Source of the DNA: Candidatus Iainarchaeum sp. | GTDB lineage: Archaea > Iainarchaeota > Iainarchaeia > Iainarchaeales > DTGL01 | Direction: 5' to 3' | Length of the DNA stretch: 53,349 nt | Assembly: GCA_026396995.1 (NCBI GenBank) | Contig: JAPLVS010000060.1 | Coordinates: 1 to 53,349 of the forward strand | Shown here: positions 2,103 through 22,553 of the stretch, piece after piece | How the letters are laid out: the number at the start of each line of letters is the position of its first letter | How positions within the stretch are numbered: position 1 is the first letter of the stretch | The notes under the pieces: generated by a model | Told to the model about the DNA's origin: nothing | The model's input: only the letters and a program-made list of their open reading frames with translations | Databases searched by the model: none | Translations under genes and position numbers: made by a program

Positions 2103-2537
2103 TCAATTCTTTTCCAGTTCCACGGAATCGGATGGGTTGTTCATTTCCGTTTCATAGCATTTTTCACAGCACCATTTCAATTTCAGCGGCCTTGAACTGT
2201 CAATTGCCCCGCAGTCGGTCAGTTTCACCGAGCCTGTGTTTTGCGGCTGCAGCTGGCTTGTGATGCTTGCAATGTCTATCCCGTTCTTTTTTGGGATTGT
2301 GATTTCCGCTGAAACTATTATTTTGGCCCCGCTGTTGTAAAAAGGAACATTGAGCTTTCCTTCGATGCATTCGCTTTTGCCGTATTCGAGCACACAACCG
2401 TCATTTATTGCACCGTTCAAATCCGCTGCAGGCAAATTCACCGGATTAGTTATGTAGAAAAATATGCCGTATGTTGCGACGAACAGCAGGAAGAGCGCAG
2501 GCATCAGCCATTTGCTTTCGATTTTCCAGTCCATCAA
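2103..2537 (-). CDS. Single-pass membrane protein with a small Cys-containing extracellular domain
   Basis: N-terminal TM (WLMPALFLLFVATYGIFFYI); C-terminal WCCEKC; divergent from the 2588 gene across a shared TATA. Confidence 0.65.
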   Translation of the reverse strand: MMDWKIESKWLMPALFLLFVATYGIFFYITNPVNLPAADLNGAINDGCVLEYGKSECIEGKLNVPFYNSGAKIIVSAEITIPKKNGIDIASITSQLQPQNTGSVKLTDCGAIDSSRPLKLKWCCEKCYETEMNNPSDSVELEKN

Positions 2538-2555
2538 CCCATTTCTGTTCAGATA

Positions 2556-2563
2556 TTTATATA
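2556..2563. promoter_or_regulatory. TATA box (TTTATATA) between divergent genes
   Basis: About 25 bp upstream of ATG 2588 and about 20-25 bp upstream of ATG 2537 on the minus strand. Confidence 0.5.
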
Positions 2564-2587
2564 TCCCTTTTCCAGGCTCTTTCCCTT

Positions 2588-3514
2588 ATGGTCGAGCGCT
2601 TGGACTTAAAGCTGGGATTCAAATGCAACAACAATTGCCTCTCCTGCCCTGCAGCGCACCGCAGGCGCCTTGGCGACATGAGTACGGAACAAGCGAAAGA
2701 GCAGATTCTTGCCGGGAGGAAGGACGGCGCAATCGAAGTTGTCCTTACAGGTGGCGAGCCCACTGTGAGGCCGGACCTGGTTGAATTGGTGTGGTTTGCA
2801 AGGGAAAACGGCTATGAAAGAGTGCAATTGCAGACCAATGCCAGGATGCTTTCCTACAAATCGCTGGCAGTAAAGCTTGTTGAAGCAGGGGTAAACGATT
2901 TCTGTGTGGGACTGCATTCGGACACCGCGGAAATACAGGAGTTTTTGACCCAATGCCCAGGCTCTTTCCAGCAAACAATCCAGGGCATAAAAAACCTTGT
3001 GGCTTTGGGCCAACATGTTGCAATTAATTCGGTTGTCCACAAGCTGGATTTCGAAAGGCTCCCGAAGCGCGCAGAAATGGCTGTCGATTTGGGCGTCCAG
3101 CAATTCCAGCTCGCGTTCATACATTGCGCAGGCAATGCCATGAAAAACATCGATTTGCTTTTGCCGCGCAAATCCGAAGTCAAGCCTTTTGTGCATAAGG
3201 CGCTCGACATTGTCATTGAAGCAGGCCTAACCACAATGGTGGAAGCCTACCCTTATTGTTTCATGCAGGGCTATGAAAAATATTGCTCCGAACTCTATAT
3301 GCCGCCTTCTGAAATCAGGGATGCCGAAGGCGTTGTCGAGGACTTTGATGTTGTGCGCAAGGAAAGCGGCAAACTGAAAGGGCCGGAATGCCCGAAGTGC
3401 AGGTTTTTTGCAGTATGCGAAGGGCCCTGGAAGGAATACCCTGAAAAATTCGGCTGGAGCGAATTTGTTCCCATGAAAGGAAAAAAGGTCTTGAGGCAGG
3501 AGGACTTGCTTTGA
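2588..3514 (+). CDS. Radical SAM protein, HxsC-like paralog 1
   Basis: CNNNCLSC (CxxxCxxC), TGGEPT, QTNARM, EAYPYC, C-terminal CPKC-x5-CEG. ATG 2588 preferred over the ORF-track start at 2471. Confidence 0.9.
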   Translation: MVERLDLKLGFKCNNNCLSCPAAHRRRLGDMSTEQAKEQILAGRKDGAIEVVLTGGEPTVRPDLVELVWFARENGYERVQLQTNARMLSYKSLAVKLVEAGVNDFCVGLHSDTAEIQEFLTQCPGSFQQTIQGIKNLVALGQHVAINSVVHKLDFERLPKRAEMAVDLGVQQFQLAFIHCAGNAMKNIDLLLPRKSEVKPFVHKALDIVIEAGLTTMVEAYPYCFMQGYEKYCSELYMPPSEIRDAEGVVEDFDVVRKESGKLKGPECPKCRFFAVCEGPWKEYPEKFGWSEFVPMKGKKVLRQEDLL

Positions 3515-4098
3515 AACGGAAAACCGCCGCGCCCAAAAGGCAATATCTTGCCCTTATTGCCTTTTTTTCCGCCCTGTTTGTTTTCGGGTTGTTTTTGCTT
3601 TACATCAATATGAATTCAGGGCAGGGCAACGGAAACGGAGCACAGGCTTCTGCAACTCCGACTTCTTCAGTGCAGCCAACCAAAACTCCGGCGCCCACAC
3701 CGCAGCCTGAAGAAGAGATGGATTTGGGTTTTTATGTGAAAAAAGCCCTTGAAAAAGGTGAAGAGGGATGTGGTGATTCCCAGGAATGCCTGCGGCTTTT
3801 TTCTCTTGCTGAAAAAAACTGTTCTGGTTCCACAAATGAAAAGATTTTCTGCCTTGCTGTTTTCGATTCCAACAAAGATTACTGTGGATGGCTTAGCCTT
3901 GAATGGTATAAGGCCACCTGCATTGCGTTTTTGGATGGAAATGTGCAAGAATGCCTCGGGCTTAAGGCCGAAGCGGAAAGAATGCTCTGCGTGAAAGACT
4001 TGGCAGCCAACCTCGAGGAAATGGACTGCAATGCGCTTCCATCTGAGTTTGCGGCTATCTGCGGCGAGGAAAGGGCGAAAGGCACCATGGAAGAATAA
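3511..4098 (+). CDS. Membrane-anchored protein with a Pro/Thr linker and Cys-pair helical repeats
   Basis: TM segment, PTKTPAPTPQP linker, then repeated C-x(6-10)-C units (10 Cys). Confidence 0.75.
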   Translation: MKRKTAAPKRQYLALIAFFSALFVFGLFLLYINMNSGQGNGNGAQASATPTSSVQPTKTPAPTPQPEEEMDLGFYVKKALEKGEEGCGDSQECLRLFSLAEKNCSGSTNEKIFCLAVFDSNKDYCGWLSLEWYKATCIAFLDGNVQECLGLKAEAERMLCVKDLAANLEEMDCNALPSEFAAICGEERAKGTMEE

Positions 4099-4194: not shown

Positions 4195-5026
4195 ATGATT
4201 GAATTTTTTTTGGTTCCAGTTTTTGCAATCAGCCTAATCGCTTCAATCGAGGACTTCAAAAAAGGCATTATAAGGAACCATTTCATCCTTGCATTGCTTG
4301 CCCTTGGCATGCTCTTCCAGTTCTTTTCAGGAACCAGCCTGCCTGCGCTTGCAACTGTTTTGTCAGGCGCGCTTGCGATTTCCTTCCTTTTCTGGCTTGC
4401 CGGTTTATGGCCTGCCGGGGACGCAAAGCTTTTCTGGGCGTATTTTTTCTTTTTCCCGCCGGTGCTGCTCGGCGCGCAGTCGCTTTTGATGGATTTCCTG
4501 ACCAATATTTTCGTGCCGATTTTTTGCTTCATGTTTTTTGTCATACTTTACAGGAGCAGGCTCGGCCTTATCGGCGAGGCATTGAAGCCCCCGGGAATTT
4601 TACACGATTTCATTTGCGTTGATGCTTTTCAAAATAATCGCTGTTTTCGTTTTCTTCAGGTTTTTCATATTGTACCTTGCGTTCAAGCTTTACACGGACA
4701 AGGTGAAAATAAGCGAGCTCAGGGAAGGAATGGCGCCTGCGGAAGGCATTTTCAAGAAAGGCGATTCTTTTGAGAAAGAGGAATTCCTGCAGTCCTGCTT
4801 CACAGGCTATTTTTCGCAGAAAACAAGGAAATTCATCCACGGCCAGGAATCGCTTTCCGAAGAGGACGTGGAAAAAATCAAGGCGCTTGAAAAGCAGGGC
4901 AAATTCAAGTTCGATTCCCTGCTTGTCCACCAGGCACAGCCTTTCGCCTTGTTCATTTTCGCCGGCTTCCTTCTCACTCTTCTTTGCGCAGGCAGCGTTG
5001 TGACGTTTTTAAGGCTAGCCATATGA
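4195..5026 (+). pseudogene. A24 (FlaK/PibD-type) prepilin peptidase, split by a +1 frameshift at about 4588-4592
   Basis: The N-half has both catalytic Asp motifs (SIED, WPAGDAKL). The C-half in the next frame has the FlaK-type C-terminal domain (KVKISELREGMAPAE...QPFALFIFAGFLLT). Deleting one C from the C5 run fuses them into 276 aa (LKP-REFYTISF). Confidence 0.75.
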
Positions 5027-5061
5027 TTCTTTTTTTAATTGTTTTTTTGCCTGTTGTTTGT

Positions 5062-6018
5062 ATGTCGGTCAAGCGTTTTGACATCAAGCTCGGCTTCAAG
5101 TGCAACAATAACTGCCTTTGCTGCCCTGCCGCGGACAAAAAGTTTTTGGGCGACCAGGATTTGGCAAGCATAAAGCAAGAAATAACACTGGGTTTCAACG
5201 AAGGTTCCAGGGAAGTTGTGCTGACAGGCGGAGAGCCGACCGTCAGGAATGACCTCCTTGAAATAGTGGAATTCTGCAAAAGCACTGGTTTTGAATTTAT
5301 ACAACTCCAAACCAATGGCAGGATGTTTTCCTATGAAGGGTTCTGCAAAAAACTCATTGAAGCCGGAGTCAATGAGTTCGGCCCGAGCCTGCACGGCCCG
5401 AATGCAAAAATACACGATTATTTCACGCAATCGCCCGGTGCATTTGACCAGGTCGTGCAAGGGATAAAAAACCTCAAGGAACTAAACCAGAGGGTTATAA
5501 TAAATTCAGTAATCACAAAATTCAATTACCGCCTTTTGCCTGAAACAGCAAGGCTGTTTGTCTCTTTAGGTGTCGACCAGTACCAGTTCGTTTTCCCGCA
5601 CCTTGTCGGAAACGCGTGGAAGAATGCCGACCTCATCTGCCCAAAAAAATCCGAAGTGGAGCCTTTCCTCAAGGGAGGCCTTGAAGTCGGCATAAATGCA
5701 GGCATTCAGGTAATGGTTGAAGCATATCCTTTCTGTTTCCTTAAAGGGTTTGAAGTCTGCAGTTCCGACCTCTATATGCCGCCAGCCGACACTGCAGATG
5801 CGACAGGAATCCGCAAGGACCATCATTTGCTGCGGAGGGAAACAGGCAAGGTCAAGCACGCCAAATGCAAAAAATGCCGCTTTGGTCTTTTATGCGAAGG
5901 CCCCTGGAAGGAATACATTGCAAAGTTCGATTGGGATGAATTCAGGCCGGTTTCAGGGAAAAAAATAAAAAGCAAGGAGGAACTTTTTGAAACCTTTGGC
6001 AAGACAAAAGTTAAGTGA
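5062..6018 (+). CDS. Radical SAM protein, HxsC-like paralog 2
   Basis: KLGFKCNNNCLCC, TGGEPT, QTNGRM, EAYPFC, CKKC-x5-CEGPWKEY; closely similar to 2588..3514. Confidence 0.9.
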   Translation: MSVKRFDIKLGFKCNNNCLCCPAADKKFLGDQDLASIKQEITLGFNEGSREVVLTGGEPTVRNDLLEIVEFCKSTGFEFIQLQTNGRMFSYEGFCKKLIEAGVNEFGPSLHGPNAKIHDYFTQSPGAFDQVVQGIKNLKELNQRVIINSVITKFNYRLLPETARLFVSLGVDQYQFVFPHLVGNAWKNADLICPKKSEVEPFLKGGLEVGINAGIQVMVEAYPFCFLKGFEVCSSDLYMPPADTADATGIRKDHHLLRRETGKVKHAKCKKCRFGLLCEGPWKEYIAKFDWDEFRPVSGKKIKSKEELFETFGKTKVK

Positions 6019-6072: not shown

Positions 6073-7524
6073 ATGGCCCAAAGCTTTTATGCGACCGAAT
6101 ATGTCGCTTCCACGCCTTATGCGGTCAACAGCTACAATTCCTTCAAGTTCGACGAAGACCATATCCTTGTAACGACAGAGCACAGCGCCTGGAGCGTCTT
6201 GTCAGAAAAAGAATTCGAGCTCCTGCGCTTGGGCAAAGTGCAGGAAGACCAGGGCCTGTTCAAGGAATTGGAGGAAAAAGGCATAATCCTGACCGAGAAA
6301 AACGCCCAGCAGGTCGTCAAAGACTATAAACTGAAAAAGAATTTTTTGTTTTCCAATCCTTCCCTCCACATAATCACGCCTACAATGCGCTGCAACCAGC
6401 GCTGCCTTTACTGCCACTCGGTTGCCAAACAGCCTAATGCAAAAGATGTTGATTTGGACTGGGCAACAGGCAAAGCCATAGTCGATTTTATCCTTAAATT
6501 CCCCCTGAAATCGTTCACTATCGAATTCCAGGGCGGGGACTGCCTCATGAATTTCGATGTCGCCAAAAAAATAATGGGCTATGCGCGGTCGAAATCCAAA
6601 AAAGCCGGGAAAAAAGTGAATTTTGCCCTTGTCTCCAACCTCACCTTAATGAATGACACCGTCCTTTCGAGCCTGGCCAAGTACAATGTCAAGGGCATTG
6701 CCACTTCATTAGATGGCCCGAAGGCAATACACGACAAAAACAGGCCTTTCCTGGGCGGTGCTGGCTCGTATGACAAAGCAGTATACTGGATTGACAGGAT
6801 AAGGGGCGAATGGAAGCACAGTTTCAACCTCAATGCCTTGTGCACAATAACAAAAAATTCGCTCGGCCATGAAAAGGAAATAGTCGACGAATATTTAAAG
6901 CACGGCCTGGTTTTCCTGTGGGTGCGGCCGCTCAACAACCTCGGCTTTGCAAAGGAAGAATGGGAAAAGATAGGCTATACTCCGGAAGAATTCCTCGCCT
7001 CTTGGAAAAAGTTCCTTGATTACATCATTGAAAAAAACCGCGAAGGGGAAAAAATAATGGAGCTTTTCACAGTGTTGTTCCTGAAAAAAATAATCACGAA
7101 ACGCGAACCCCAGATGGTCGACGTAATGTCGCCCTGCGGCGCCGCAATCGGCCAGCTTTTGTACAATTACAAAGGCGACATTTTCACCTGCGACGACGCC
7201 AAGGTTTTGCCCGAGTTCAGGCTCGGCAACGTGAAAACTTCGACTGCCAGGGACATATTCCTCAACCCGACGACAATTTCACTGGTCGACATCTCCTCGA
7301 AAAAGAATTTTTTGTGTGACCGCTGCCCCTGGGAACCGTACTGCGGCATTTGCCCGGTATATTCCTATTCTGCCGAAGGCACCATTGTTTCAAAGCTTGC
7401 AATGAACGACCGCTGCAAGGTTTACGGCAGCATGATAGAGCACATTTTCCGTAAAATACTTTTTTCACCTGAGGACAGGCGGATATTGTTTGGCTGGATA
7501 GAGGGCCAAAAAGTATTCAGTTGA
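6073..7524 (+). CDS. hxsB: His-Xaa-Ser system radical SAM/SPASM maturase HxsB
   Basis: LHIITPTMRCNQRCLYCH, IEFQGG, TSLDGPKAIHDKNR, SPCGAAIGQLLYNYKGDIFTCD, CDRCPWEPYCGICPV; lies in a cluster with a His-Xaa-Ser repeat peptide. Confidence 0.85.
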   Translation: MAQSFYATEYVASTPYAVNSYNSFKFDEDHILVTTEHSAWSVLSEKEFELLRLGKVQEDQGLFKELEEKGIILTEKNAQQVVKDYKLKKNFLFSNPSLHIITPTMRCNQRCLYCHSVAKQPNAKDVDLDWATGKAIVDFILKFPLKSFTIEFQGGDCLMNFDVAKKIMGYARSKSKKAGKKVNFALVSNLTLMNDTVLSSLAKYNVKGIATSLDGPKAIHDKNRPFLGGAGSYDKAVYWIDRIRGEWKHSFNLNALCTITKNSLGHEKEIVDEYLKHGLVFLWVRPLNNLGFAKEEWEKIGYTPEEFLASWKKFLDYIIEKNREGEKIMELFTVLFLKKIITKREPQMVDVMSPCGAAIGQLLYNYKGDIFTCDDAKVLPEFRLGNVKTSTARDIFLNPTTISLVDISSKKNFLCDRCPWEPYCGICPVYSYSAEGTIVSKLAMNDRCKVYGSMIEHIFRKILFSPEDRRILFGWIEGQKVFS

Positions 7525-7548: not shown

Positions 7549-8481
7549 GTGACTGAAGCAATAAAAACTGCAATCGTTTTGGGCTATAACTGCAACAACA
7601 ACTGCAGGTTCTGCCTCAGCCGGCACAAGAACGATTCAGTCAGGCCGCTTGGCACAAAAAAAGTCAAAGAAGAAATTGTTTTGGCGAGAAAGCGCGGTTC
7701 CGACAGGCTGGATTTTGTCGGCGGCGAGCCGACACTGAGGAAAGATTTGCCAGAACTGGTTTCCTTTGCAAAGGAAAACGGCTTTAAGTCGGTAAGAATC
7801 ACGACAAACGGCAGGATGTTTTCGCAAAAAAAATTCGCAGAAGAGCTTGTCGGCGCAGGGCTGACAATGGCGATTTTTTCAATCCACGGCCATACCGCGG
7901 AATTGCACGATTACCTTACAAGGGTCGATGGCTCTTATTCCCAGGCAGTCCAAGGGATGAAAAATGTAAGGGAGTTGGCTGAAGGCAGGCCTGACTGGGA
8001 GCAGATGGCAACAAACACGGTTATGGTCAGGCCGAACCTGAAATTCCTTGCACAAATAGCCGAACACAACATTGCGCTCGGTTCCAAAAACCTTGAATTC
8101 ATTTTCCCAGACCCGCAGGGCAATTGCTGGGATAATTTCGAGGAACTCGTGCCAAGGCTCCCGGAACTGATTGAACCTATGCGGAGTGTAATAAAGGCCG
8201 GGCAAAAGCACGGCCTGCACAGTTGCCTTATGAGATATTTGCCATTGTGCTATATGTACGGCTATTTCGAATACCTGAGCGAGTATTTGGCGGTCCGCCG
8301 CCAGAGGGAGCAGCACATAGGGCCGGACATATTTGACCTTGAAGTCGAAAAGTCGAGGCGCACTATCGCGAGGGTAAAAGGGCCGCAGTGCGCCGGCTGC
8401 AAGCGCTCTCCCGCATGCGAGGGCGTATTCAAGGAATATGTCCTGAAAAGGGGGTTTGAGGAACTGGTGCCGATGCCCTGA
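7549..8481 (+). CDS. Radical SAM protein, HxsC-like paralog 3
   Basis: CNNNCRFC, VGGEPT, TTNGRM, RYLPLC, KGPQCAGC-x5-CEG. Confidence 0.9.
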   Translation: MTEAIKTAIVLGYNCNNNCRFCLSRHKNDSVRPLGTKKVKEEIVLARKRGSDRLDFVGGEPTLRKDLPELVSFAKENGFKSVRITTNGRMFSQKKFAEELVGAGLTMAIFSIHGHTAELHDYLTRVDGSYSQAVQGMKNVRELAEGRPDWEQMATNTVMVRPNLKFLAQIAEHNIALGSKNLEFIFPDPQGNCWDNFEELVPRLPELIEPMRSVIKAGQKHGLHSCLMRYLPLCYMYGYFEYLSEYLAVRRQREQHIGPDIFDLEVEKSRRTIARVKGPQCAGCKRSPACEGVFKEYVLKRGFEELVPMP

Positions 8482-8516: not shown

Positions 8517-10358
8517 TCAATAAATATAACAATCCGGCTTTTTTCTTTCCGCGCTTTCCAGGAAATCTTCGAACAACGCATGCCTGTCCGGATATTTTTC
8601 TAGTTTTTTTCCTGCCGCGCCGTTGCAGAAAACCACGATGCTGCTTTGCACCGAAAACATTTCCCGGCACTCAAAGCAGTCTTTAGGGATCCTTTTAAGA
8701 AGGCGCTCCGGCAGGTCGGCCATTCCAGGGGGAAGCGGTTTTGTTACATTGAAAAGCATATTTTCCTTTTCAAGTTCCATGAAGAATGCTGCCATCGCAG
8801 CAAGGTCTTTTTTTGTTGTTTTTTCGCTTATAGTCGGGGAAAAAAGATAGAAGCGGAACCCTGTTTTCTGCATTTTTTTGATTTTTTTCAATTCAGAGAC
8901 AAAGCTGAAATTTTCAGGTTCGAGCGAAACAAAAGCGCTTTCCTTCGGAATGTTGTTCTGCGCTGTTTCCAGTGGAAATTCATGGAGGGAGGTGCAATAG
9001 GTCATGCTGCCAGGCCCTATCCTGATGAACGGCTTCAGGGCGATAACTTCCCTTTCAATTACCTGTTCGGCAAGTGCCCTGAAGTTCCTCTGGTTACGGA
9101 GGCATTTTGCCTTGTCCGGCTTGAGGATGCTGCGGTTTTTGTGGAGGCTTGCAAGCGGGCAGTCGCCCCAGCAAAGCTTGAAATCGCATTTTTTGCATTC
9201 CACGCGCTCCCTGAAACCGCGGAATTCCGAAATCTTTTTTTCGTCGATTTCAATCCTGCTGCTGGCTGCATCATATCTCCCGATGGACAGTTCGGCCAGG
9301 CCAGGATTGTGCTTTAAGTCTTCCTGGCTTGCATACATTTCGCAGGCATTGATTGCGCCGTCTGCGCCCATGCAGAAAAGGCTGCCGAGCGGGCAATGCC
9401 TTGTGCCTTCTTCCCGTAACAGGTTTACCGAACCTGTGAAAAAGGCCACGCCGAACTCGGCACAAAGGTCGGCAAACCTGCCGATTGCAAGCGTTTCTTT
9501 TTCAGGCGATTCCCTCCAGCTGTCGTGTGCGCGCCCGAAATTCATGAGCGGCCCCAATCCTATATGCCTTGAACTGAGGTCGTAAAAATAAGCGAAAATT
9601 TCCTTTTCCCTGCCGAAAACCTTTTCGGTGAGGGTCAGCCTTGTCTTGAAAGGCCTGCCTTTTGCAGCAAACTTCCTTATGGTTGCCTCGACAATCCGGC
9701 TGCTCCCGCCGCCGCCACTCAAAGGCCTTTGTGCGTCCTGGATTTCCGGCGGCCCGTCGCAGGAAACCTGTGGTTCCGGAATATTGGCGGAAATCCAGTC
9801 AATGGTCTTGCCATCAATCATGCCGTTCGTCGAGAACTCCAGAGTGCCCAGCATGTTTTTTTCTTTCATACAGGCAACGGTTTTTTTTAGAAGTTCGAAG
9901 CTTTTCGTCTGCTCTCCTGGCGCCGTTATCACCAACCCGACTTTTTGGTCTGGCTTGTAAAGGAAGTCAAGACAGGTTTTTACCTGCTTCCAGTCCGGCG
10001 AGGTGGTTTTTCTTTTCTCCCCCCCGTGGCAAAAACAGTAGGTGCAGGCAAGCCCGCAGTCAGTGCTCAAAGCCGGCGCAAAGCCAGTGAAGTTTGGCAG
10101 CAGTTCCTTGAAGGGCGGCTTTTTTGCCTTGTTTTTTTCAATAAGGCCTGCGCAGGCATTGAATGCTTCTCCGTCAAGCAGGAGGATTGTATTCGGTTCC
10201 TTTGCAAAAAAACAGCGGAAACCATTTTTTTCGAAAAGGAAAACAGTGAAGCCGAGCCTTCCAATCGCCCTCTTTATTTCCTCTTCAGTGGAAAGCACCG
10301 CGGTGCTCTTTCCGACCACGGTGTATGACAAAAGCCTCATGTAGCCCCCTACTGGCAT
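8517..10358 (-). CDS. Radical SAM/SPASM peptide-maturase-like protein with an extra C-terminal Cys domain
   Basis: CGLACTYC, STNG, VSCDGPPEIQDAQRP, SPASM-type HCP...ACE...CKKCDFKLCWGDCP, then an extension of about 170 aa with CFEC. Confidence 0.85.
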   Translation of the reverse strand: MPVGGYMRLLSYTVVGKSTAVLSTEEEIKRAIGRLGFTVFLFEKNGFRCFFAKEPNTILLLDGEAFNACAGLIEKNKAKKPPFKELLPNFTGFAPALSTDCGLACTYCFCHGGEKRKTTSPDWKQVKTCLDFLYKPDQKVGLVITAPGEQTKSFELLKKTVACMKEKNMLGTLEFSTNGMIDGKTIDWISANIPEPQVSCDGPPEIQDAQRPLSGGGGSSRIVEATIRKFAAKGRPFKTRLTLTEKVFGREKEIFAYFYDLSSRHIGLGPLMNFGRAHDSWRESPEKETLAIGRFADLCAEFGVAFFTGSVNLLREEGTRHCPLGSLFCMGADGAINACEMYASQEDLKHNPGLAELSIGRYDAASSRIEIDEKKISEFRGFRERVECKKCDFKLCWGDCPLASLHKNRSILKPDKAKCLRNQRNFRALAEQVIEREVIALKPFIRIGPGSMTYCTSLHEFPLETAQNNIPKESAFVSLEPENFSFVSELKKIKKMQKTGFRFYLFSPTISEKTTKKDLAAMAAFFMELEKENMLFNVTKPLPPGMADLPERLLKRIPKDCFECREMFSVQSSIVVFCNGAAGKKLEKYPDRHALFEDFLESAERKKPDCYIY

Positions 10359-10387: not shown

Positions 10388-10690
10388 TCAAGGTGATCGT
10401 GGAACAGTGCTTGCAGCTTTCTCGCATTCCGCCCGCCAGGCGGCATCAATCAGATATGAACAGAATACTGGTTCTTTATAGGAAACCGCGAGGTTTTGTA
10501 TTTCAAAATCGGTTTCCGAAGCATTTTTGTCGAAGTTTGCGAGCAAAAAGCTTTCCTTGAAGGCAGGGCAGAGGCCTGCGTTCCCATAAGGCCTCGTCTC
10601 AGTCCTCGGGAACACAATGCCTGCAAAAAGCCCGAGTATTGCTGCAAGCGCGAGGAGTGTCAGGTAATTGCCTGCCTGTTTTTTGTCCAT
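10388..10690 (-). CDS. Small membrane-anchored Cys-containing protein
   Basis: MDKKQAGNYLTLLALAAILGLFAGIVF TM; FCSYLIDAAWRAEC; start coupled to the stop of 10690..11076. Confidence 0.65.
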   Translation of the reverse strand: MDKKQAGNYLTLLALAAILGLFAGIVFPRTETRPYGNAGLCPAFKESFLLANFDKNASETDFEIQNLAVSYKEPVFCSYLIDAAWRAECEKAASTVPRSP

Positions 10691-11076
10691 CAGACACCAC
10701 CGCATGTTTTCTCTGCCAGCGCCGCTTCGGCCAGGCAGAGCGACCTGTAGTGCCCTAAAGGCAGCGTATTGCAAAATTCCTTGTCGCGGGTGAATACGGC
10801 AGTGCAGGTTATTTTCAGCGCTTTGCTTTCTATGATGCCGCAGTACATTACATCGCGTTCCTTTATGGCTCTTTCGTAAACGCACTTTTGGTAAGCGATT
10901 GAACTCCTGTCGAATGTCATGCACCGGCCGGTGTCTATGCTGTCGCTGAACTTAATGCCCTCCACACGGACCGTTTTCACAGGCTTGTTGAGGAAAAAAA
11001 AGCCCAGGGCGGCAAATGCAAAAAAAACAAGCACTGCCGCAAAGGCCAGTTTCATGCCGATTTTTGTCTGGCCCAT
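10690..11076 (-). CDS. Small membrane-anchored protein with Cys-pair repeats
   Basis: TM, then C-x10-C type units (YCGIIESKALKITC, FCNTLPLGHYRSLC); directly downstream of hxsA. Confidence 0.75.
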   Translation of the reverse strand: MGQTKIGMKLAFAAVLVFFAFAALGFFFLNKPVKTVRVEGIKFSDSIDTGRCMTFDRSSIAYQKCVYERAIKERDVMYCGIIESKALKITCTAVFTRDKEFCNTLPLGHYRSLCLAEAALAEKTCGGV

Positions 11077-11085
11077 TTTAAATCC

Positions 11086-11463
11086 TCACGTTGCGAACTC
11101 TGCCGCGCACCCGCACTGGGCGTGCGAGGCATGGTCCGAGTGTGCTGAGTGTGATTCGTGCACTGAGTGTGCTGAGTGTGATTCGTGCACTGAATGCTCC
11201 GAGTGTGAGTCGTGGGAGCCGTGCGAGGCGTGCGATGCGTGGTGGCCGTGCTTTGAAATCATTGTGCCGGAACTCCACCCGACGCTGAAATAGTTCGAGT
11301 GGGCGGCCTGCACTTCAGGCAAAAGGTTCAAAAGCGAAATTGATGCCAGGAAGGCCCCGACTGAAAGCATTTTTTGTTTCGAGATTGAGCCCTTCTCTTC
11401 CACTAAAAAAGAGGAAATTGCCCTTTTTATTTCAGGGATGTATTTGCTTTTCTTTTTTGGCAT
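11086..11463 (-). CDS. hxsA: His-Xaa-Ser repeat precursor peptide (HxsA-like)
   Basis: 125 aa: charged leader, hydrophobic segment, then HGH-HAS-HAS-HGS-HDS-HSE-HSV-HES-HSA-HSV-HES-HSA-HSD-HAS-HAQ-CGC; next to hxsC and hxsD. Confidence 0.9.
   Translation of the reverse strand: MPKKKSKYIPEIKRAISSFLVEEKGSISKQKMLSVGAFLASISLLNLLPEVQAAHSNYFSVGWSSGTMISKHGHHASHASHGSHDSHSEHSVHESHSAHSVHESHSAHSDHASHAQCGCAAEFAT
11138..11191. repeat. Perfect 27-bp tandem duplication in the hxsA core
   Basis: GAGTGTGCTGAGTGTGATTCGTGCACT x2. Confidence 0.95.
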
Positions 11464-11484
11464 ACTAGTATTATCCGCCCCTAA

Positions 11485-11493
11485 TTTATATAA
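11485..11493 (-). promoter_or_regulatory. TATA box for hxsA (TTATATAAA on the minus strand)
   Basis: 22-30 bp upstream of ATG 11463, with no Shine-Dalgarno; consistent with a leaderless transcript. Confidence 0.55.
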
Positions 11494-11505
11494 TTATTGC
11501 TTTGG

Positions 11506-12360
11506 CTATCGCACGGCCTTGAACTCTTCTTCGCCGGCAAGCGGAAGGTAACTTATCCAGATTCTGGAACACAATCCCTTGACAGAGCAGGCTGTGCAGT
11601 TTTTCGAGAACGTGAGCTCTTCCTCCTGTTTTGTGACGCCGGCTGACATTGGCCAGTATTTTCTTCCGATCACGCAGTGGGGAAAATGGAAAAGTCTTAC
11701 CTCGAAACCGTTTTCTGCGAGCACACCCGCCGCCTTTTCCACAAAGGGAGCGGCAGCCGAATACCTTACAAACAGTTTTTTGCGGTAAATGAATGCGTTG
11801 CCTGTGTATTTCATGTTTATAAAAACAATCCTTGCAACTCCTTTCAGGTTTTTTGAAATGAATTCCGCTGTTTTTTCCAGTTCCCTGAAGTTTTCCCTGT
11901 TAACTATGACCCGCAATTCCACTTTCAGCCCGAATTCCACCAGGTTTTTTATGCCTTCGATTGTTTCAGCCCAGCTTCCGGCGGCCCTTGTGATTTTGTC
12001 GTGTTTTTGCCTTTTGTGGCTGTAAATCGGGATGCCGATTCTGAAATTGCCCAGGCCAAGGAATTTTTTTGCATATTCTTTGTCTGCAAATTTCCTGCCA
12101 TTGGAAACAAGGAATATTTCCTTCTGCGGCCACTTGCCCCTTGCAAATGACAGCAGCCCAGCCAGGTCTTCCAAAAGCGTCGGTTCTCCCCCTGTAAAGC
12201 CCATATATTGTGCCTCTTCGGACCGGCTTATTTGTTCTTCCAGTTCTTTCTGGCTTGGGTCGGGCATGAGCCTCATCTGCCTTGTGTCAAAAATGCAGGA
12301 AATGCAGTCGTTGTTGCACTGGAATGTTAACGCGCAGTCCATTTGACTACCAGCCCTCAA
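11506..12360 (-). CDS. hxsC: His-Xaa-Ser system radical SAM maturase HxsC
   Basis: CNNDCISC, FTGGEPTL, SNGRKF, GIPIYSH...HDKITRAAGSW..TIEGI, VELRV, FPHC, CTACSVKGLC; between hxsD and hxsA. Confidence 0.8.
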   Translation of the reverse strand: MRAGSQMDCALTFQCNNDCISCIFDTRQMRLMPDPSQKELEEQISRSEEAQYMGFTGGEPTLLEDLAGLLSFARGKWPQKEIFLVSNGRKFADKEYAKKFLGLGNFRIGIPIYSHKRQKHDKITRAAGSWAETIEGIKNLVEFGLKVELRVIVNRENFRELEKTAEFISKNLKGVARIVFINMKYTGNAFIYRKKLFVRYSAAAPFVEKAAGVLAENGFEVRLFHFPHCVIGRKYWPMSAGVTKQEEELTFSKNCTACSVKGLCSRIWISYLPLAGEEEFKAVR

Positions 12361-12448: not shown

Positions 12449-12706
12449 TCAAAGGATGCTGCCCGCGCCTTTCCTGCACGCGATTACAAGGTTGCAGAAT
12501 TCCCAGGCAAGCCCTTCCAAATCCGTTTTCCCGCGCGGCTTGAACCTGACAACAAAATACTCCTTATCTTTGCTTTTGTCTGCTTTCAGGCCGCCTTCAA
12601 GCATGCCGATTGCATTGTCGACTGCTTTTTCCTGGTAAATGCCTTCCCTGAACCGTATTTCGACAGAATTAGCTTTCCTGTCTGCCTTGAATTGCATTCC
12701 AATCAC
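12449..12706 (-). CDS. HxsD-like small protein
   Basis: IYQEKAV...YFVVRF...LAWEFCNLVI resembles the HxsD fold; coupled to the upstream hxsD. Confidence 0.6.
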   Translation of the reverse strand: MIGMQFKADRKANSVEIRFREGIYQEKAVDNAIGMLEGGLKADKSKDKEYFVVRFKPRGKTDLEGLAWEFCNLVIACRKGAGSIL

Positions 12707-13188
12707 TTAGGCTTCTTCAGCCCTTTTGCTTTTTCAGGCACCCAAGGCGCTGAAATGCCTTCAGGGTCCTTTATATACAAATTTTCGTCCTCTTCAGGCA
12801 TTTTTATTTTTTTGGCAGCGCCTGCAATCTCTTTTTCCATTGAGCACTCAGGGCAGTACTCGTCCTCGATGTTTGTGGCAAGCGCCCTCTTGATTATTGC
12901 CTCCCTTACGGCCTGGTTCCTTGCGGCTTGGGCGATGTAAACGGAATAATTGACCAATTCGTTCCCGAAATCTTTTGCAAGCGTTTCCAGCGCCTTTTTG
13001 CTTATTTTTTCATCCTTGGCCTGCATTGCCACCATCAAGCCCTTTTCCGGGTCGCCGTCAAGGAAAAAATACGCCTTGTCAAGGAAAACGTAAGCGGCCG
13101 AATAAACCACTTCAAGGGAGTAAACCTTGGGGTTTACAGAAATGATTGCCTTTCCCTCGCGCGGAAATAATTCAATGTTTTTCATCAT
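12703..13188 (-). CDS. hxsD: His-Xaa-Ser system protein HxsD
   Basis: VYSLEVVYSAAYVFLDKAYFFLD...DFGNELVNY...VREAIIKRAL...DPEGISAPW. Confidence 0.8.
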   Translation of the reverse strand: MMKNIELFPREGKAIISVNPKVYSLEVVYSAAYVFLDKAYFFLDGDPEKGLMVAMQAKDEKISKKALETLAKDFGNELVNYSVYIAQAARNQAVREAIIKRALATNIEDEYCPECSMEKEIAGAAKKIKMPEEDENLYIKDPEGISAPWVPEKAKGLKKPK

Positions 13189-13293: not shown

Positions 13294-14220
13294 ATGGAAA
13301 GTGAAAAATGGGGCGGAGTGATTATAGGGCCTTATTGCAGCAACCGCTGCCTTTTTTGCGGCGGACGCGGAAAGATTCCAGATTCGGAATTGAAGCAGCA
13401 GGAAAACAATGTTTTCCGAAATTTGATTGAATTTAAAGGCAGGGGCATTAAAAAAGTGGAGATTTCAGGCGGCGACCCAATCGAATACAGCGAAATAGCC
13501 AACCTTATAAAATACATCAAAAAAATCGGCTTCGAGAAAGTGCACTTGTCCACGCACGGAACAAGGCTTTCCGACGAAGCCTTCCTGGATGAAATAATCC
13601 ATTCGGGGCTTGACATTCTCAGGATTCCGTTATACGGTTCAAAAGCCAAAATCCATGATTCCGTCACCCAATCCAAGGGAAGCTTCCGCAAAACCCTGAA
13701 AGGCATCAAAGGCATCCTTGAAAAATCTGAAATCCATATCAAGATTAGTTCCCTTATCGTGCAGCAAAACAAGAACGATTTGACAGGCATTACCGACTTG
13801 GTTGGCGGCCTCGGCATAAAGGATTTTTATTTTTCAATCCCCTGCCTTGTCGGCAGAAAAGACCTGTCCTATTACATTCCATTAAAGGATTTGGGGCCTT
13901 ATGTGAAAAAAGCATACGATCATTCGTCAAAGGAAGGTTTCGGCGCCAATTTCAAGGAAATCCCTTACTGTATCTTCTCCAAGGCGGACAGAAATAGAAT
14001 AGAAAACACCAGCAAACCGCCTGACCTTGGCAAATATTGCCAGCCGCCGGCAAGATTGAAAACCCAGGTAAAAGACCTTCCTTCCTACCGTGTCAAGGCC
14101 AAAACAGAAATGTGCAAAACATGCAAGTGCTTTGATTTCTGCGACGGCTTCTTTTTGAACGATATCACCAACTTTGGAACTGGGAACATCAAGCCTATCC
14201 TGGAACTTGAATCGCCTTAA
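13294..14220 (+). CDS. Radical SAM protein, divergent HxsC-like paralog 4
   Basis: CSNRCLFC, SGGDP, STHG, IPLYGSKAKIHDSVT, EIPYC, CKTCKCFDFCDG. Confidence 0.88.
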   Translation: MESEKWGGVIIGPYCSNRCLFCGGRGKIPDSELKQQENNVFRNLIEFKGRGIKKVEISGGDPIEYSEIANLIKYIKKIGFEKVHLSTHGTRLSDEAFLDEIIHSGLDILRIPLYGSKAKIHDSVTQSKGSFRKTLKGIKGILEKSEIHIKISSLIVQQNKNDLTGITDLVGGLGIKDFYFSIPCLVGRKDLSYYIPLKDLGPYVKKAYDHSSKEGFGANFKEIPYCIFSKADRNRIENTSKPPDLGKYCQPPARLKTQVKDLPSYRVKAKTEMCKTCKCFDFCDGFFLNDITNFGTGNIKPILELESP

Positions 14221-14360: not shown

Positions 14361-17300
14361 ATGAGACCACAGGATAAACAGAGAACTGCGCAGATTTTGC
14401 TACTTATCGCTTTAGCCGCGCTTTTTGCCCCTGTCTCTTTTGCACAGGTCTGCACAGGCGGCCTGGGTGTTACCGGTGCGCTGGACTGCACAGGCACGAG
14501 CTCTTCAGCCTGCCATTACTGCGACGTCAACGCAATGCAGTTCCAGATAAGGGCGCCTGACGACACAAACACGACAGCATGGATAGCGGAAACATATTCG
14601 ACTGGAAGCGGCACATGCTCTTCGGGATGCGCGGACGAAACCTGGCTTTCGAGTTACGGTTACACTTTCTGCCATGCCGAAGGCGCATACGATGCGCGCA
14701 CAAAAGCAGGCTCGCAGAACGCTTCCGGTTATTCTTGGGAAACAAGCGACTGGAACACCAACGTATACACAGTAAACTGGGACACTTCAAGCGACTGGTG
14801 CCAGTGCAGGACAGGCTCAAGCGCGAACTGGTTTTCCACAGTAAGCGGCGGCTCGAACGGAAGCTGCTGCGGCGACGACACAACAAGCGACGACTTTTAT
14901 TATTATTCGGCAGACCCGACAACCGCAACCTCGCTTGCCTGCACGCGCTGCTCTGACGGCACAAAGGCAGGCCCGACAACGCTTTACGGGAACGGCTATT
15001 GGGGCGGCACAGACAAAACCACAGACACTTCCGGCACCTGTTATTATGGGGATATAAATTGCACGGCATCCACTGCAGCAAACGGCACTTCCGGCACCTA
15101 TTACGGGAACGGCTACACAACCGCAAGCCAGACCTCGGATTTGAACGGCTTATGCTATTACGGCGACATCACCTGCGCGAACGGCTCTGCCGCAAACGGT
15201 TCCTCACTGACACTTTACGGGAACGGCTCTGTTTTCGGGACAACCTGCATTTACGGCGACTGGACCTGCGCGAACGGCAGCGATTCCAACGGCTCTTCAT
15301 GCACGCTTGCCTGCAGCGGCCTCAGCACAACCTGCTGCGCAACACAAGCCTATTACAGGGACACAATCGCATGCGCAGAATCAGGCTGCGGCTACACAGA
15401 CCATGACAGGGATGACGGAGAAGCATACTGCACGGCAAGCTCTTCCAAATCAGTTTCCGACTCTTTCACCGATGAAACCAAGGTTGCCTCAAAAACTGAT
15501 TTGAACGTCGACACATCCGCAGGGCAGGTAAAGCTGAACGCTTCAAGCCAGGCCTGGTGGAATTCTTCTTGGGGTTATAGGAAGCCTGTTACTATTAATA
15601 ATACGGGCAATTCCAACACGCTTACCAACTATCAGGTTTTTGTAAATGTTTCCTTTGTTTCGGGCAAAATGAAGTCGGATTTCAATGATTTGCGCTTTTA
15701 CGACCACGATTCGAACACAGCGCTTTCCTATTGGATTGAGAATTATGTCGCGAGTTCTGATGCAAATGTCTGGGTGAAAGTCCCAAGCATTCCGGCCTCA
15801 AGCAATAAAACGATTTACATGTATTACGAGAACGGTTCAGCGACTTCAGACAGCAACGCGGAAGCGGTCATGCTTGTCTACGATGACTTCGCTTCCGGAA
15901 CAGAAGCCTGGACTGGCCCGGTTTGCACAGGCTATTCTTTGTCTAACTCTTCAGGGACAGCTTATCTCTTGGAGGGGGCATCTGGGGATTACCTATGTGA
16001 CCCAGTGTCAAGAAATGGGCAAGAAGGAAGCATGGAGAAAACTGTCACTAAACCAACTGGTGTCGGGTTGGACGTGCAATTTGACTGGAGGGCGACATCT
16101 GATACAGATGGTTCTACAGTGACAAATGCCAAAATCAGCTTTTTAAATAGTTCTGACACAACCTTGTCTTCCACTACTTTAGTGGCAGGCGGAACAGCAG
16201 ATACCGGGTGGAACTATGACTACAATAAGGCAGTCATAAGCGCCATTTCATCTGAAACATCAATAACGATAGTTCTTGGTTTTTGGGATTCTTGGACATT
16301 AAATCACGTGCAGAAAAACTATTACGACAATATCCAGGTTAGGCAATTCACCACCCCGACGCCTTCCGCCTCGCTCGGCACAGAAGAGGTTAAACTTTCT
16401 TACGCCACTTCCGGCACCCTCACCTCGACCAATCTCCTTTCAGGTTATACTTTTTCAAGCATTGACCAGTTCGGCGCAAACGCCTCTTCGATTCCGGCAG
16501 GGACAACCCTGAAAGTTCAGTTCTCGCAAAACAATTCCACCTGGTACAATTCTTCCGGTTCTGCTGAGGCATGGAACACGCTCTCGCAGGGATACAATTC
16601 AATCAGCCTGTCCTCGCTCGGCTGGTCCGGTTCGAATTTTTACTATAAGGCGCAATTCGATTCCAACGGCTCAAGCACGCCATTGCTTGACGACATTAAC
16701 GTTTACCAAGCAGGCACTCTCGGTGAAGCCACAGGTTGCACCGCTTACACCTGGGACTCCACTGGTTCAAAATGCTGCGGCGACGACAATGTTGCGGATT
16801 CATTCTGCACTTCTGGCGGCGGTTCCTGCATTTCAGGGAGCTGGACTGCAAACCACTGCCTTGACGGCGTGAAAAACTGCGACGAGATAGGCATAGATAA
16901 CGGAGGCGCTGACTGCAACGCGGAGGCCTCTGACACGACAGCGCCGGTAACCACAAGCGACGCAAATGAGCAATGGCAGACCGCAAACCAAACCATAACA
17001 TTGGCCTGCAGCGACGGCTCCGCGGTTGGCGCTTCCGGATGCCAGGCAACATATTATTGCATCGACGATTACAACACCTGCGAGCCTTCGGTTGCAGGCA
17101 CAACAGCGCAGGTGAATTGCAATTCTGACGATGTGAACAGGCAGTTTGTGAGGTTTTATTCTTTGGATTACAATTCGAATGTCGAGGACGTGAAAAGCGC
17201 CTACATCAAAATCGACAAGCAGAAACCGAGCACCGACAACAACATCAGCACCGCATGGGTTGACTCGAACGTGCACGTGAAGCTTTCCTGCACCGATTAT

Positions 17301-20300
17301 AATGGTTCTGGCTGCGCGCTCACCCAGTACAGGCAGGACACAAACCCAAGCAAGGAAATCACCTGGAGCGCCTGGGCGAATTACAGCACTGCAATAGTTT
17401 TCGGTTCCGACGGAAATTATGCAATCGACTTCAATTCAACAGACAACGTAGGGAACATGGAATCAAGCAGCAGGGCGCTTGTGAAAATCGACAAAGGCAT
17501 TGCCATAATCTGGCCGATGGAAACCTATTCATATTATTCCACTTATGACGGCAATGTGATAGTCCAATTCACGCAGGACGGCAACCACCAGCTGGATTTC
17601 AATTCAAGGGATGTTGCAGGAAACGCGGAACAGGTGCGCACTGTCTGGGTTGCAATCGACAAAACCCCGCCTGTGACAACGGACGACCTCAACACAGCAT
17701 GGCAGACCGCAAATTTTTCCATCGCCCTCACATGCAATGACAAGGCAAAGGAATGCACTTCCATAGGATACAGGCTGGACTCATCGGCTTCAAGCAGTGT
17801 TTCGATGGGGGCATGGGCCGCATATTCCACGCCGATTTCGATTTCAACAGACGGGAACTGGGCGCTGGATTACAATGCGACTGATTATGTCGGCTGGGTG
17901 GAGGCAACACACAGGATTTATGCATTGCTTGACAAGACCGCTCCGAGCACAACCGATGATGCGAACACTTCTTGGCACAACAGCAATTTTAATGTAACAC
18001 TTTCCGCAAGCGATGCAACCTCAGGCATAAAAGACACGCTTTTCTGCCTTTCAACAGGCACTTGCACCCCGAGCGTTTCAGGGAACAATGTGGCAATTAC
18101 CTGCCAGTCCGGCGCTGTCTGCAGGAACTATTTGTATTACCTTTCAACAGATGTTGCCGGAAACATTGAAAGCACCAAATCAACAGGCGAACTGAAAATA
18201 GACAGGCAGAACCCGATTGTTGTCAGCGATGCAAACACCGCCTGCCATCTTTCGGACCAGACAGTGCATTTGAGCAGTTATGACTGGAACGGTTCAGGCA
18301 TTGCAGCGACCTATTACTGCGTTGACGACACGAACACCTGCACCCCATCGGCAAGCGGCACCACGGCTGAGGTTTCCTGCGATGCGAATTCGCTCTGCCC
18401 CAAATACGTGCGCTATAATGCGACCGACCTTGCAGGCAACAGTTCAGTAACTTATTCCGCGGCCATAACAGTCGACAAAGGCGCGCCCACAACAACCACT
18501 GATGCGAACACTGCCTGGAAGAATTCGAACCAGATGATAACGCTCACTCCAAGCGACGGCGTGGGCTGCGGGGTTGCGGCAACCTATTATTGCACCGATG
18601 ACACGAACACGTGCGCTCCGACCACAAGCGGCACTTCGGTCAGCATCGATTGCAATGCGAGCAGCGTGTGCCAGAAATACTTAAGGTATTATTCGGTTGA
18701 CATCGGCGGCAGCACCGAATCCGTGAAAGCTGTTCTTGTAAGAATAGACAGGCAGGCGCCATCAGTATCGCACGATGCGAACACTGCATGGGTGAATTCA
18801 AACCAGACAGTGCACTTTACAATAAACGACGGTTCCGGCGCCGGTGGAACCCAGGCATATTATTGCACTGATGATGTGAATTCCTGCAATCCAAGCATGC
18901 TTGCTTCTTCGGCTGATGTCAACTGCGATGTGAATGCTGTCTGCCAGAAATATTTGCGCTTCAAGGGCGTTGATACCCTCGGCAACCAGGGCGAAACAGC
19001 AGCGGTCAAGATAAGGATTGACAAGAACGCCCCGATGACTGCAAGCGACGTGAACAGCGCATGGCGCTCGACAAACCACGTGGTTTACCTTACGGCGAAT
19101 GACACTGGCTCAGGCGTGCAGGCCACCTATTATTGCGGGGACATCACCAACACGTGCACCCCCAACATTGCCGACACTTCCTTCACTGTTTACGCATTGG
19201 ACAACCAGGTGGTTGTATCCTATGCCAGGTATTATTCCAAAGACAATGCAGGCAACAGTGAAAGCATTCATTCGGACATTATAAGGATGGACAAGCAGAA
19301 GCCTGCCACAACCGACGACTCGAACAGCACATGGCAGAAAACCGATGTCACTGTGCACCTCACTCCAGGCGACGGCTCTGGCTGCGGGATTGCTTCAACA
19401 TATTACTGCGTTGACGATTCCAATTCCTGCACCCCCACCACCGGCGGCACTTCGGCCAGCGTCACCTGCGAAGAAAATTCTGTCTGCCAGAAATACGTGA
19501 GGTATTATTCGACGGACAGCCTCGGCAACACAGAAACAACGAAATCCTCGACTGTCATAAGGATCGACAAGAACGCGCCTTATACCGCAGCCGACCTGAA
19601 TGCGGAATGGTATGGTGGAAACCAGAATGTCACTTTGACGCCGACCGACGGTTCTGGCTCCGGGATTGCCGCAACCTATTATTGCACTGATGACACCAAT
19701 GCCTGCGCTCCCACGACAAGCGGCACGTCAGCGAGCTTTTCCTGCGATGCGAATTCTGTCTGCTTGAAATATTTGAGGTATTATTCAAAGGACAATGCCG
19801 GAAACAATGAAGCAGTGCACGGCAAGCCTGTTAACATCGACAGCCAGAATCCTGCCTCGGCAGCAGTGTTCGAGGACGGCTGGCACGGCGATTTCAATGT
19901 GCAGGTTTCCTGCAACGATTACAACGGTTCAGGCTGTTCAACGCTTAAATACAGGATTGACAGCGGGGCGTGGACTGAACAATCGTTCGCAGGCAATGAT
20001 TCCAACATCCTTTTGAGCACAGACGGCAACCATTTGGTGGAATATTCTGCCTTGGACCTGGTTGATAACAACAGCGGCATAAAGCAGGGCTGGCTTGCCG
20101 TTGATAAAAATCCGCCGAGCATTACCATCACTGACCCGAGCACAGACCTGATGGAAAAAGGCACCCCGACAATTTCATTCAATATCGGCAGGCTCGGCGG
20201 TTCGGTCTTAAGCATTTCCTCGATTGTGGTTGACTTTAACGGAACGCCGAGCGACGACTTTGTTGCGGCAGCGGACTGCAACCAGAACGCTGCAGGAGAC

Positions 20301-22508: not shown

Positions 22509-22553
22509 CTTTCCACTTTCATTTTTCCCTTTTTTGTTTTTTCAAAGCCCGGC

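Follow-up and report, generated by a model that had tools for sequence, protein, structure and literature searches.

The closest described counterparts of the locus considered here are the bacterial HXS systems (HxsA, HxsB, HxsC and HxsD), which act in antiphage defence by blocking the entry of phage DNA (Li et al., Nat Commun 2026, PMC13128918). In the accessible text of that report, N-terminal cleavage and export of the effector are required, and the cleavage is non-canonical and dependent on HxsB, HxsC and HxsD; no protease is named there for this processing. The same text places 99.7% of HXS systems in the Pseudomonadota and describes an exported, matured effector as antiviral in the E. 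coli system only, and the terms "archaea", "peptidase" and "prepilin" are absent from it (PMC13128918). Here we analyse an HXS-type cluster from the DPANN archaeon Candidatus Iainarchaeum sp., which lies on a stretch of 53,349 nucleotides (NCBI GenBank assembly GCA_026396995.1, contig JAPLVS010000060.1, positions 1 to 53,349 of the forward strand; the window in the following) and contains genes for an HxsA-type precursor (11086-11463, minus strand) and an aspartyl peptidase of family A24 (4195-5026, plus strand).

An initial annotation, made from the letters of the window alone, had suggested that the precursor carries a prepilin-like leader and that the modified His peptide may be matured by this dedicated A24 peptidase and displayed like a pilin. 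Comparison of related genomes gives good support to a dedicated A24 leader peptidase for HxsA-type precursors: the association of the peptidase with the cluster proved constant in two phyla, whereas HxsA as its substrate and the site of the cut are inferred.

Like the bacterial HXS systems, the archaeal cluster has a His-Xaa-Ser precursor beside HxsB (above cut-off), an HxsC-like radical S-adenosylmethionine (SAM) protein and HxsD. It differs from them in the order of elements within the precursor, a 25-residue leader coming first and a signal-like stretch second, and in a precursor without a peptidoglycan-binding domain (no Pfam match). Further differences are the extra radical SAM paralogs and the encoded A24 peptidase of the archaeal cluster.

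Leader peptidases encoded in clusters for ribosomally synthesized and post-translationally modified peptides (RiPPs) include LanP and the C39 domain, which cuts double-glycine leaders. The archaeal cluster is similar in that a conserved leader ending in Gly is accompanied by a cluster-encoded protease, but unlike LanP and C39 the candidate is an integral-membrane aspartyl peptidase. Enzymes of family A24 cleave their substrates on the cytoplasmic side of the membrane, immediately ahead of a membrane helix and C-terminal to a small residue. As in the archaeal class III signals of the FlaK, PibD and EppA enzymes, a small residue (Gly, rarely Ala) precedes the hydrophobic segment of the precursor, and the cluster peptidase shares with these enzymes the GxGD layout of two Asp residues and, in its predicted form, a FlaK-like fold. 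In contrast to class III signals, the leader is about 20-30 residues long, with acidic residues at -2/-3 and basic ones at +1/+4, and is followed by a polar gap of 5-6 residues, a short hydrophobic run and a site resembling that of signal peptidase I. Full-text literature searches that paired prepilin peptidases or class III signal peptides with RiPPs retrieved no paper.

The HxsA-type precursor and its leader

The precursor open reading frame (ORF; 11086-11463, minus strand, stop codon included) codes for 125 amino acids. Its translation reads MPKKKSK...SSFLVEEKG, SISKQK, MLSVGAFLASISLLNLL, PEVQA, AHS..., in agreement with the N-terminus given in the initial annotation. Three parts can be distinguished. 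Residues 1-25 (11389-11463) form a putative leader that ends in FLVEEKG (Gly25), a role suggested by its conservation among homologs. Residues 26-52 (11308-11388) comprise the basic patch SISKQK, the 17-residue uncharged stretch MLSVGAFLASISLLNLL and PEVQA, which provides a V-x-A site like that of signal peptidase I. The remaining 73 residues (53-125; 11089-11307), starting AHSNYFSVGW..., are the presumed core, which contains 17 His and 18 Ser, seven H-x-S triplets within residues 75-113, and a C-terminal Cys pair.

The precursor matches the NCBIfam models HxsA3 (NF038309; 42.2 bits, cut-off 65) and HxsA4 (NF038313; 29.8 bits, cut-off 55), in both cases below cut-off. There was no match to TIGR03979 at E≤0.01, and neither the whole precursor nor its N-terminal 62 residues matched any Pfam family at E≤10. 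The alignments begin at profile position 3, so the leader itself is part of the conserved region. Judged by these matches and by its neighbours, 11086-11463 is an HxsA3/A4-like precursor within an HXS-type radical SAM cluster; by the same bit scores, it and its kin are relatives of HxsA3 and HxsA4, not members by the NCBI definition.

For a wider view, a profile of the 55-residue leader region was searched against 1.84 billion cluster representatives. It matched 597 representatives (50% identity) at E≤0.001, 61 of them at E≤1e-10. From the 150 matches listed, 148 were aligned; two proteins of more than 600 amino acids (P0068 and P0086) were left out because their matches were internal repeats. 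The Gly that ends the leader is the most constant feature of the alignment. All 22 database homologs have it, and a single Ala takes its place among 29 copies from related genomes (28 Gly) and likewise among the 148 aligned representatives (147 Gly), so that the glycine of the FLxxExG motif, the conservation of which the initial annotation had left to be checked, is indeed kept. Other positions, counted from a cut after this residue, are hardly less constant: Glu at -3 (147/148), Gly at +11 (146/148), Lys at +4 (144/148), Pro near the start (141/148) and Ile at +2 (140/148).

On this alignment, the first 50 or so residues are one conserved module with two parts. The leader follows the consensus [IL]P-x-[IL]KK-x-I-S-x-[FY]-L-x-x-E-[ED]-G. 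In the second part, the basic patch x-I-[ST]-K-x-x is followed by a hydrophobic stretch, which is 13-20 residues long and contains an invariant Gly. Then comes a small-x-small site, which reads VQA in the window. All ten representatives tested matched HxsA3 below cut-off (25-55 bits), from profile position 2 or 3 onward, and many cores in the family end in ...H-x-H-H-x-S-H...S-Y. By these comparisons this is a large precursor family related to HxsA3/A4, with a common N-terminal module and varied cores. A Pfam search with 100 relatives at E≤1 gave only scattered matches at chance level; no pilin, Flp or class III family was among the 25 of 32 matched families that were listed.

Two members (P0122 and P0157) are natural fusions in which an HxsD domain stands directly N-terminal to the leader. 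As Rosetta-stone-type support, these fusions suggest that HxsD works on or beside the leader.

Several features of the cores are also of note. In L085:9992-10678, P0033, P0051, P0122, P0157 and P0160, one or two Hint/intein-like domains, recognized by eye from a Cys-Phe start and a ...VHN end, follow or interrupt the core; they suggest self-cleaving C-terminal processing in some family members. The precursors of family f11 in L043-L054, P0023, P0026 and others are short (67-92 amino acids) and often end in ...S-H-x-S-Y, in some cases preceded by a poly-Pro run. The conserved C-terminal Ser-Tyr of these short precursors may be a modification site. The number of H-x-S core repeats differs widely between relatives, and in the window a 27-base head-to-tail repeat in the core-coding region (about 11139-11192) duplicates the peptide SAHSVHESH.

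Co-occurrence of the leader and a dedicated A24 paralog

The distribution of leader and peptidase was surveyed in 215 genomes of the phylum to which the window belongs. The 62-residue N-terminus of the window precursor was found at 30 places in 26 of these genomes. A Pfam A24 match is present on the same contig, 2.7-17 kb away, for 21 of these places, which represent 21 of the 26 genomes. Eight of the remaining nine places lie on contigs of 3.2-40 kb without any A24 match; the ninth is on contig C24 of the source genome (106 kb), the sole A24 match of which is 26 kb away and not of the cluster type.

A profile built from 26 cluster copies of the peptidase separates this type clearly from other A24 genes. 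It found 28 places with scores of 345-449 bits and the two halves of the window copy with 131.5 and 164.8 bits (27 of the 215 genomes positive), while no other A24 gene among the matches listed scored above 99.6 bits. With this profile the cluster-type peptidase is present in 25 of the 26 leader-positive genomes, and 187 genomes have neither leader nor peptidase. The exception is a genome that is 72% complete (G082), in which the Hxs contig ends directly after hxsD. Two genomes (G050 and G068) carry the paralog beside hxsB/hxsD without a leader match, on contigs that end before the expected hxsA. Of 29 paralog copies, 28 are located inside an Hxs gene block, the remaining one being alone on a 3.3-kb contig. 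The initial annotation had asked whether A24 genes would be missing from homologous clusters; they are a regular part of them.

Gene order around the paralog is not uniform. In family f1, to which the window belongs, there is a module hxsB-A24-rSAM-small membrane protein (rSAM, radical SAM), whereas a compact operon on one strand, A24-hxsD-(hxsD-like)-hxsB-hxsA-rSAM, is the layout of families f11 and f16. Outside the phylum four loci were found, two labelled Aenigmatarchaeota and two labelled "archaeon", and in all four the paralog is on the same contig as hxsA, at distances between 28 bp and 12.2 kb. Among 301 sampled genomes from a second DPANN phylum (thresholds E≤1e-40 for the paralog and E≤1e-4 for the leader), the paralog was present in 26 and the leader in 21; 19 genomes had both, two the leader only and seven the paralog only. 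Where both were present, they were on one contig within 12.2 kb in 18 of 19 genomes, and only 40-51 bp apart in two. The surveyed genomes include kin, and the counts are thus non-independent; the association nevertheless holds across lineages despite differing gene orders. At the level of gene content there is therefore strong support for a dedicated A24 paralog as a fixed component of homologous clusters in two DPANN phyla.

A second Hxs cluster is present in the source genome itself (1.35 Mb, 81 contigs, 92.8% complete), on contig C24 (G000:C24, about 96.7-105.9 kb; locus L057). It consists of hxsB, a radical SAM gene, a gene for a small membrane protein, hxsA, hxsC, hxsD and a gene for a giant protein, and has no A24 gene of its own. 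The same is true of the Hxs cluster G058:C128. A single peptidase may serve two clusters in one genome.

The A24 peptidase

The A24 gene of the window is the sole Peptidase_A24 match on the contig; the source genome holds two further A24 genes on other contigs. The earlier observation that the only prepilin peptidase of the window sits in the Hxs cluster thus stands. Its first part (4195-4773) matches PF01478 with 31.8 bits (cut-off 26.5) and its second part (4619-5026) Arc_PepC with 41.4 bits (cut-off 23.4). Both catalytic Asp residues are invariant in 26 of 26 orthologs and are present in the window copy as Asp20 (4252-4254) and Asp76 (4420-4422, within PAGDA). An AlphaFold2 model of an ortholog from the same genus (predicted local distance difference test, pLDDT, 86.9; predicted template modelling score 0.80) was compared with known structures. 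In a wide search with VIA-align, the best match was FlaK (3s0x_B; Z 10.8, root-mean-square deviation 4.0, 161 residues aligned), and the next had a Z of 5.3. Foldseek with the same model returned nothing from the PDB at E≤0.001, and the A24 profile had no match among PDB sequences at E≤0.01.

NCBIfam contains no model that names the cluster A24 peptidase. Three of four copies tested were without a match, and the fourth had a distant full-length match to EppA (53.5 bits, cut-off 450). Judged by profile and fold matches, the cluster peptidase is a divergent FlaK/EppA-like peptidase, and the family enzyme looks active, given its intact catalytic dyad and FlaK-like predicted fold.

An interruption at about 4573-4588 deprives the window copy of profile positions 137-207 and shifts its frame at about 4587. 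The break was analysed on public Logan contigs, not on raw reads, and the gap is deduced from contig ends, their loose ends and the contig of one relative. The contigs of two runs (X1 and X2, at least 99% alike) leave 4573-4588 unbridged. One of them stops at 4573, and those with a match beginning at 4588 have 162 and 138 letters upstream of it that are unmatched. A manual translation of the final 30 of these letters, in the frame of the downstream part, gives LCAAARIVLA and continues without a gap into PREFYTISFALMLFK...; the joined reading LCAAARIVLA-PREFYTISFALMLFK aligns with ...LCAFARVLLFPAEIYSIPFAINFLK... of the ortholog. A relative's contig (X3, 90-95% alike) covers the break and has 434 letters there, the window only 219. 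The surplus of 215 letters (3x71+2) is exactly what is needed for one frame to be restored. The break thus most likely reflects about 215 bases (about 71 codons) that the assembly lacks, not a real frameshift, and the real gene most likely has about 348 codons, as in the orthologs. The frame repair that the initial annotation had envisaged for the peptidase is probably unnecessary.

Proposed mechanism

We propose that the leader remains cytoplasmic and keeps the precursor bound to maturases of the HxsB, HxsC and HxsD type while the His-rich core is modified. The hydrophobic stretch would then insert with its N-terminus inside and its C-terminus outside (N-in/C-out), and the cluster-encoded divergent A24 aspartyl peptidase would remove the leader at the cytoplasmic face, most likely by a cut after the invariant Gly (Gly25/Ser26 in the window). 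The core would end outside the membrane, where the hydrophobic helix would keep it anchored or signal peptidase I would set it free at VQA/A. Within this scheme we infer that HxsA is the A24 substrate, where it is cut, how it lies in the membrane and in which order the steps follow. Taken as a whole, from leader-bound maturation and N-in/C-out insertion to leader removal by A24 and a core outside the membrane, we incline slightly towards it.

Several lines of evidence bear on these steps. In four minimal operons, the strongest hydrophobic segments belong to the peptidase (KD15 of 2.8-3.5) and to HxsA (1.75-2.2), all other proteins having values of at most 1.86; HxsA would therefore be the only evident substrate. 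The HxsD-leader fusions P0122 and P0157 place the leader on the cytoplasmic, maturase side, which would give the N-in/C-out topology. The invariant Gly is the only position that fits an A24 cut, although its distance from the helix exceeds the usual one by 5-6 residues. Complex prediction for the peptidase and the 55-residue leader region gave an interaction score (ipSAE) of 0.58 (0.57, 0.58 and 0.60 in individual runs), the best of three controls reaching 0.00; the pLDDT of the partner was at least 61, and at least 76% of contacts agreed between runs. Of 80 solved complexes 58 attain the pass mark used, as do 2 of 110 mismatched pairs; a value no higher than 0.60 was obtained for only 7 of those 80 and for both passing mismatches. 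The prediction weakly supports a pairing of peptidase and leader.

Evidence against leader removal by A24, and alternative explanations

A number of findings speak against a cut by the A24 peptidase after Gly25. A complex score of this size is more often wrong than right unless the pairing is likely a priori, conservation of the leader would be equally expected of a mere maturase-binding motif, and two Hxs clusters (G000:C24 and G058) have no A24 gene of their own. The surroundings of the Gly break the rules of class III signals: the residue at -2 is acidic in 102 of the 148 representatives, basic in 22 and other in 24, that at +1 is basic in 120 and hydrophobic in one, and at least two charged residues stand in +1 to +6 in 135. 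The uncharged run starts 5-6 residues after the Gly (at +6/+7) in 28 of 29 copies and 13 residues after it in the other, and is only 13-20 residues long. No Flp, class III or pilin family in Pfam matched the window precursor at E≤10, in searches where HMMER filters drop weak matches. A [VA]-x-[AG] motif follows the hydrophobic run at the aligned place in 28 of 29 copies, and with such a conserved site signal peptidase I alone could free the core.

How far the Gly site is a prepilin-type signal was judged by a simple charge count, with three pilin-like ORFs from the window's own pilus operon as the canonical class III set. These have [KR]G followed by VSPLI or VTPLI and no charged residue in +1 to +6. 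The class III preference for Gly, Ala or Ser at -1 is shared by the HxsA family; a basic -2 within a short basic leader and a hydrophobic stretch of about 20 residues from +1 are not. Where the ORF start is clear the leader has about 20-30 residues, and the mean hydropathy of the uncharged run is 1.6-2.15 (Kyte-Doolittle scan, 29 copies). The K-G-S around Gly25 in the window (Lys24 at -2) is a minority form in the family. The spacing F(-7) L(-6) E(-3) G(-1) may recall that of Flp leaders. On these residue patterns the HxsA Gly site resembles a prepilin-type signal only loosely, and the prepilin-like leader of the initial annotation is not borne out; its remark that SISKQK is more charged than canonical class III signals holds and extends to the whole family. 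With a FlaFind-like pattern no site was found in any of the 148 relatives, but the pattern was discarded, since the window's three pilin-like ORFs, which served as positive controls, went unrecognized as well.

The alternative that deserves most attention is that the leader only binds the maturases, that the hydrophobic stretch is a Sec signal or signal-anchor, and that the sole maturing cut is made by signal peptidase I at VQA/A, with A24 acting afterwards or elsewhere. For example, A24 could clear the leftover leader-signal fragment in the manner of a signal-peptide peptidase (SPP), cutting after Gly25 or within the membrane at Gly +11, a residue kept in 146 of 148 representatives. A24 enzymes are GxGD proteases, as are presenilin and SPP, and the top fold match of the cluster peptidase, FlaK, is a "GxGD membrane protease". 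The layout of the window precursor is of the Sec type, with a basic n-region (SKQK), the 17-residue uncharged run and V-Q-A, and throughout the family the uncharged run of 13-20 residues is followed by the [VA]-x-[AG] site. Family f1 also has Pro at -6 of the V-x-A site. Both the layout and this Pro recur in the ordinary Sec signal peptide (...LFAPVSFA, then QV) of the neighbouring surface protein of 2366 amino acids (14361-21461, plus strand). A candidate archaeal signal peptidase I is encoded on G000:C26 (34.1 and 29.8 bits on one frame, cut-off 51.85 each, and thus below cut-off). Yet the signal-like stretch is not at the very N-terminus: the 20-30 conserved residues that precede it, or a whole HxsD domain in P0122 and P0157, would be non-canonical for an N-terminal signal. 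Moreover, housekeeping clean-up hardly explains a dedicated paralog in nearly all clusters of two phyla, beside two other A24 genes per genome. We regard this explanation as rather unlikely, although it has a substantial claim to be weighed.

The pilin-like display suggested by the initial annotation, in which HxsA has a class III signal and, after the A24 cut, is anchored or assembled and displayed by the type IV pilus machinery, draws on the invariant Gly, the short gap and hydrophobic helix after it, and the A24 gene in the cluster. A type IV pilus-like operon is present in the window (21651-32732, minus strand; two T2SSF, one T2SSE and pilin-like ORFs with [KR]G then V[ST]PLI), and a pilus ATPase ortholog lies 7-10 kb from hxsA in all three family-f1 genomes checked. 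No such ortholog is near the cluster in either of two f11 genomes checked, and the compact f11/f16 operon holds no ATPase or platform gene; the proximity, being found in family f1 and absent near f11 clusters, would be inherited gene order. The charge pattern around the site is the reverse of the canonical one, the polar +1 to +6 are unlike the pilins of the window, there is no pilin, Flp or class III match in Pfam for the window precursor or among the families listed for 100 relatives, and a conserved small-x-small, signal-peptidase-like site ends the helix. We consider such display improbable. Still less credence is given to the absence of any functional link, whereby A24 would merely hitch-hike with the cluster and process unrelated pilins. 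Neighbourhood alone is no proof, the window copy is broken in the assembly and two clusters lack a copy of their own; but near-perfect co-occurrence and co-location in two phyla with differing gene orders, a separate and strongly divergent class of paralog, and a break that is probably an assembly gap make mere hitch-hiking hard to sustain.

Implications of the proposed leader removal by a GxGD peptidase

Our broader proposal is that the unnamed DPANN precursor family (597 clusters) has a leader-plus-membrane module processed by its own GxGD A24 peptidase, which would be the first recruitment of a prepilin-peptidase-type enzyme as leader peptidase for a RiPP or defence effector; we hold the arguments for and against this to be evenly balanced. 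If it is true, radical SAM maturation in the cytoplasm would be coupled to export, and a protease would be supplied for the N-terminal processing of HXS antiviral effectors. As the archaeal operon carries the candidate protease, the processing step is testable with two genes. The range of A24 substrates would widen beyond pilins, archaellins and binding proteins to radical SAM-modified peptides, and DPANN peptide families in their hundreds, as yet uncharacterised and including fusions to HxsD or Hint, would have this type of leader in common. The A24 paralog, which has no NCBIfam model, and the leader, which has no Pfam model, could each receive a family model.

Other genes of the cluster and its surroundings

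HxsB (6073-7524, plus strand), a radical SAM/SPASM maturase, matches TIGR03978 with 411.7 bits (cut-off 370), its Radical_SAM domain starting at residue 102. The first 100 or so residues gave no RRE (RiPP recognition element) or PqqD match in Pfam, and a leader-binding domain there is an assumption. The HxsC-like radical SAM protein (11506-12360, minus strand) adjoins HxsA and matches TIGR03977 below cut-off (187.9 bits against 267.9). HxsD (12703-13188, minus strand; TIGR03976, 54.5 bits, cut-off 50) is accompanied by a small HxsD-like protein (12449-12706, minus strand; NF038315, 44 bits, cut-off 41). A radical SAM/SPASM protein of 613 amino acids is encoded at 8517-10358 (minus strand); its gene comes after HxsA in family-f1 clusters. 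There are also four HxsC4-like radical SAM paralogs, one at 2471-3514 (plus strand) and three at 4984-6018, 7549-8481 and 13294-14220, the paralogs matching NF038332 with 81-163 bits, far below its cut-off of 500.

Three small proteins with an N-terminal hydrophobic stretch and Cys residues have no family match. The first (2103-2537, minus strand) is conserved beside the HxsB-A24-rSAM module in family f1, the second (3511-4098, plus strand) has counterparts in family f1, and the third is encoded at 10690-11076 (minus strand). From their layout, they could be further precursors or accessory membrane proteins.

The pilus operon is located 7-12 kb from hxsA in the window and in three of three f1 relatives (G051:C11, G053:C9 and G054:C8), and not in the two f11 genomes. 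The giant surface protein likewise adjoins the Hxs genes in family f1 (in the window and at L046:686-7504), while in G072 it is a different giant protein that stands ahead of A24 in the f11 operon. Upstream of hxsA on the minus strand (11464-11500), an AT-rich TTATATAA-like box was seen by eye about 25 bases before the ATG; its sequence and position are consistent with an archaeal TATA box and a near-leaderless precursor transcript.

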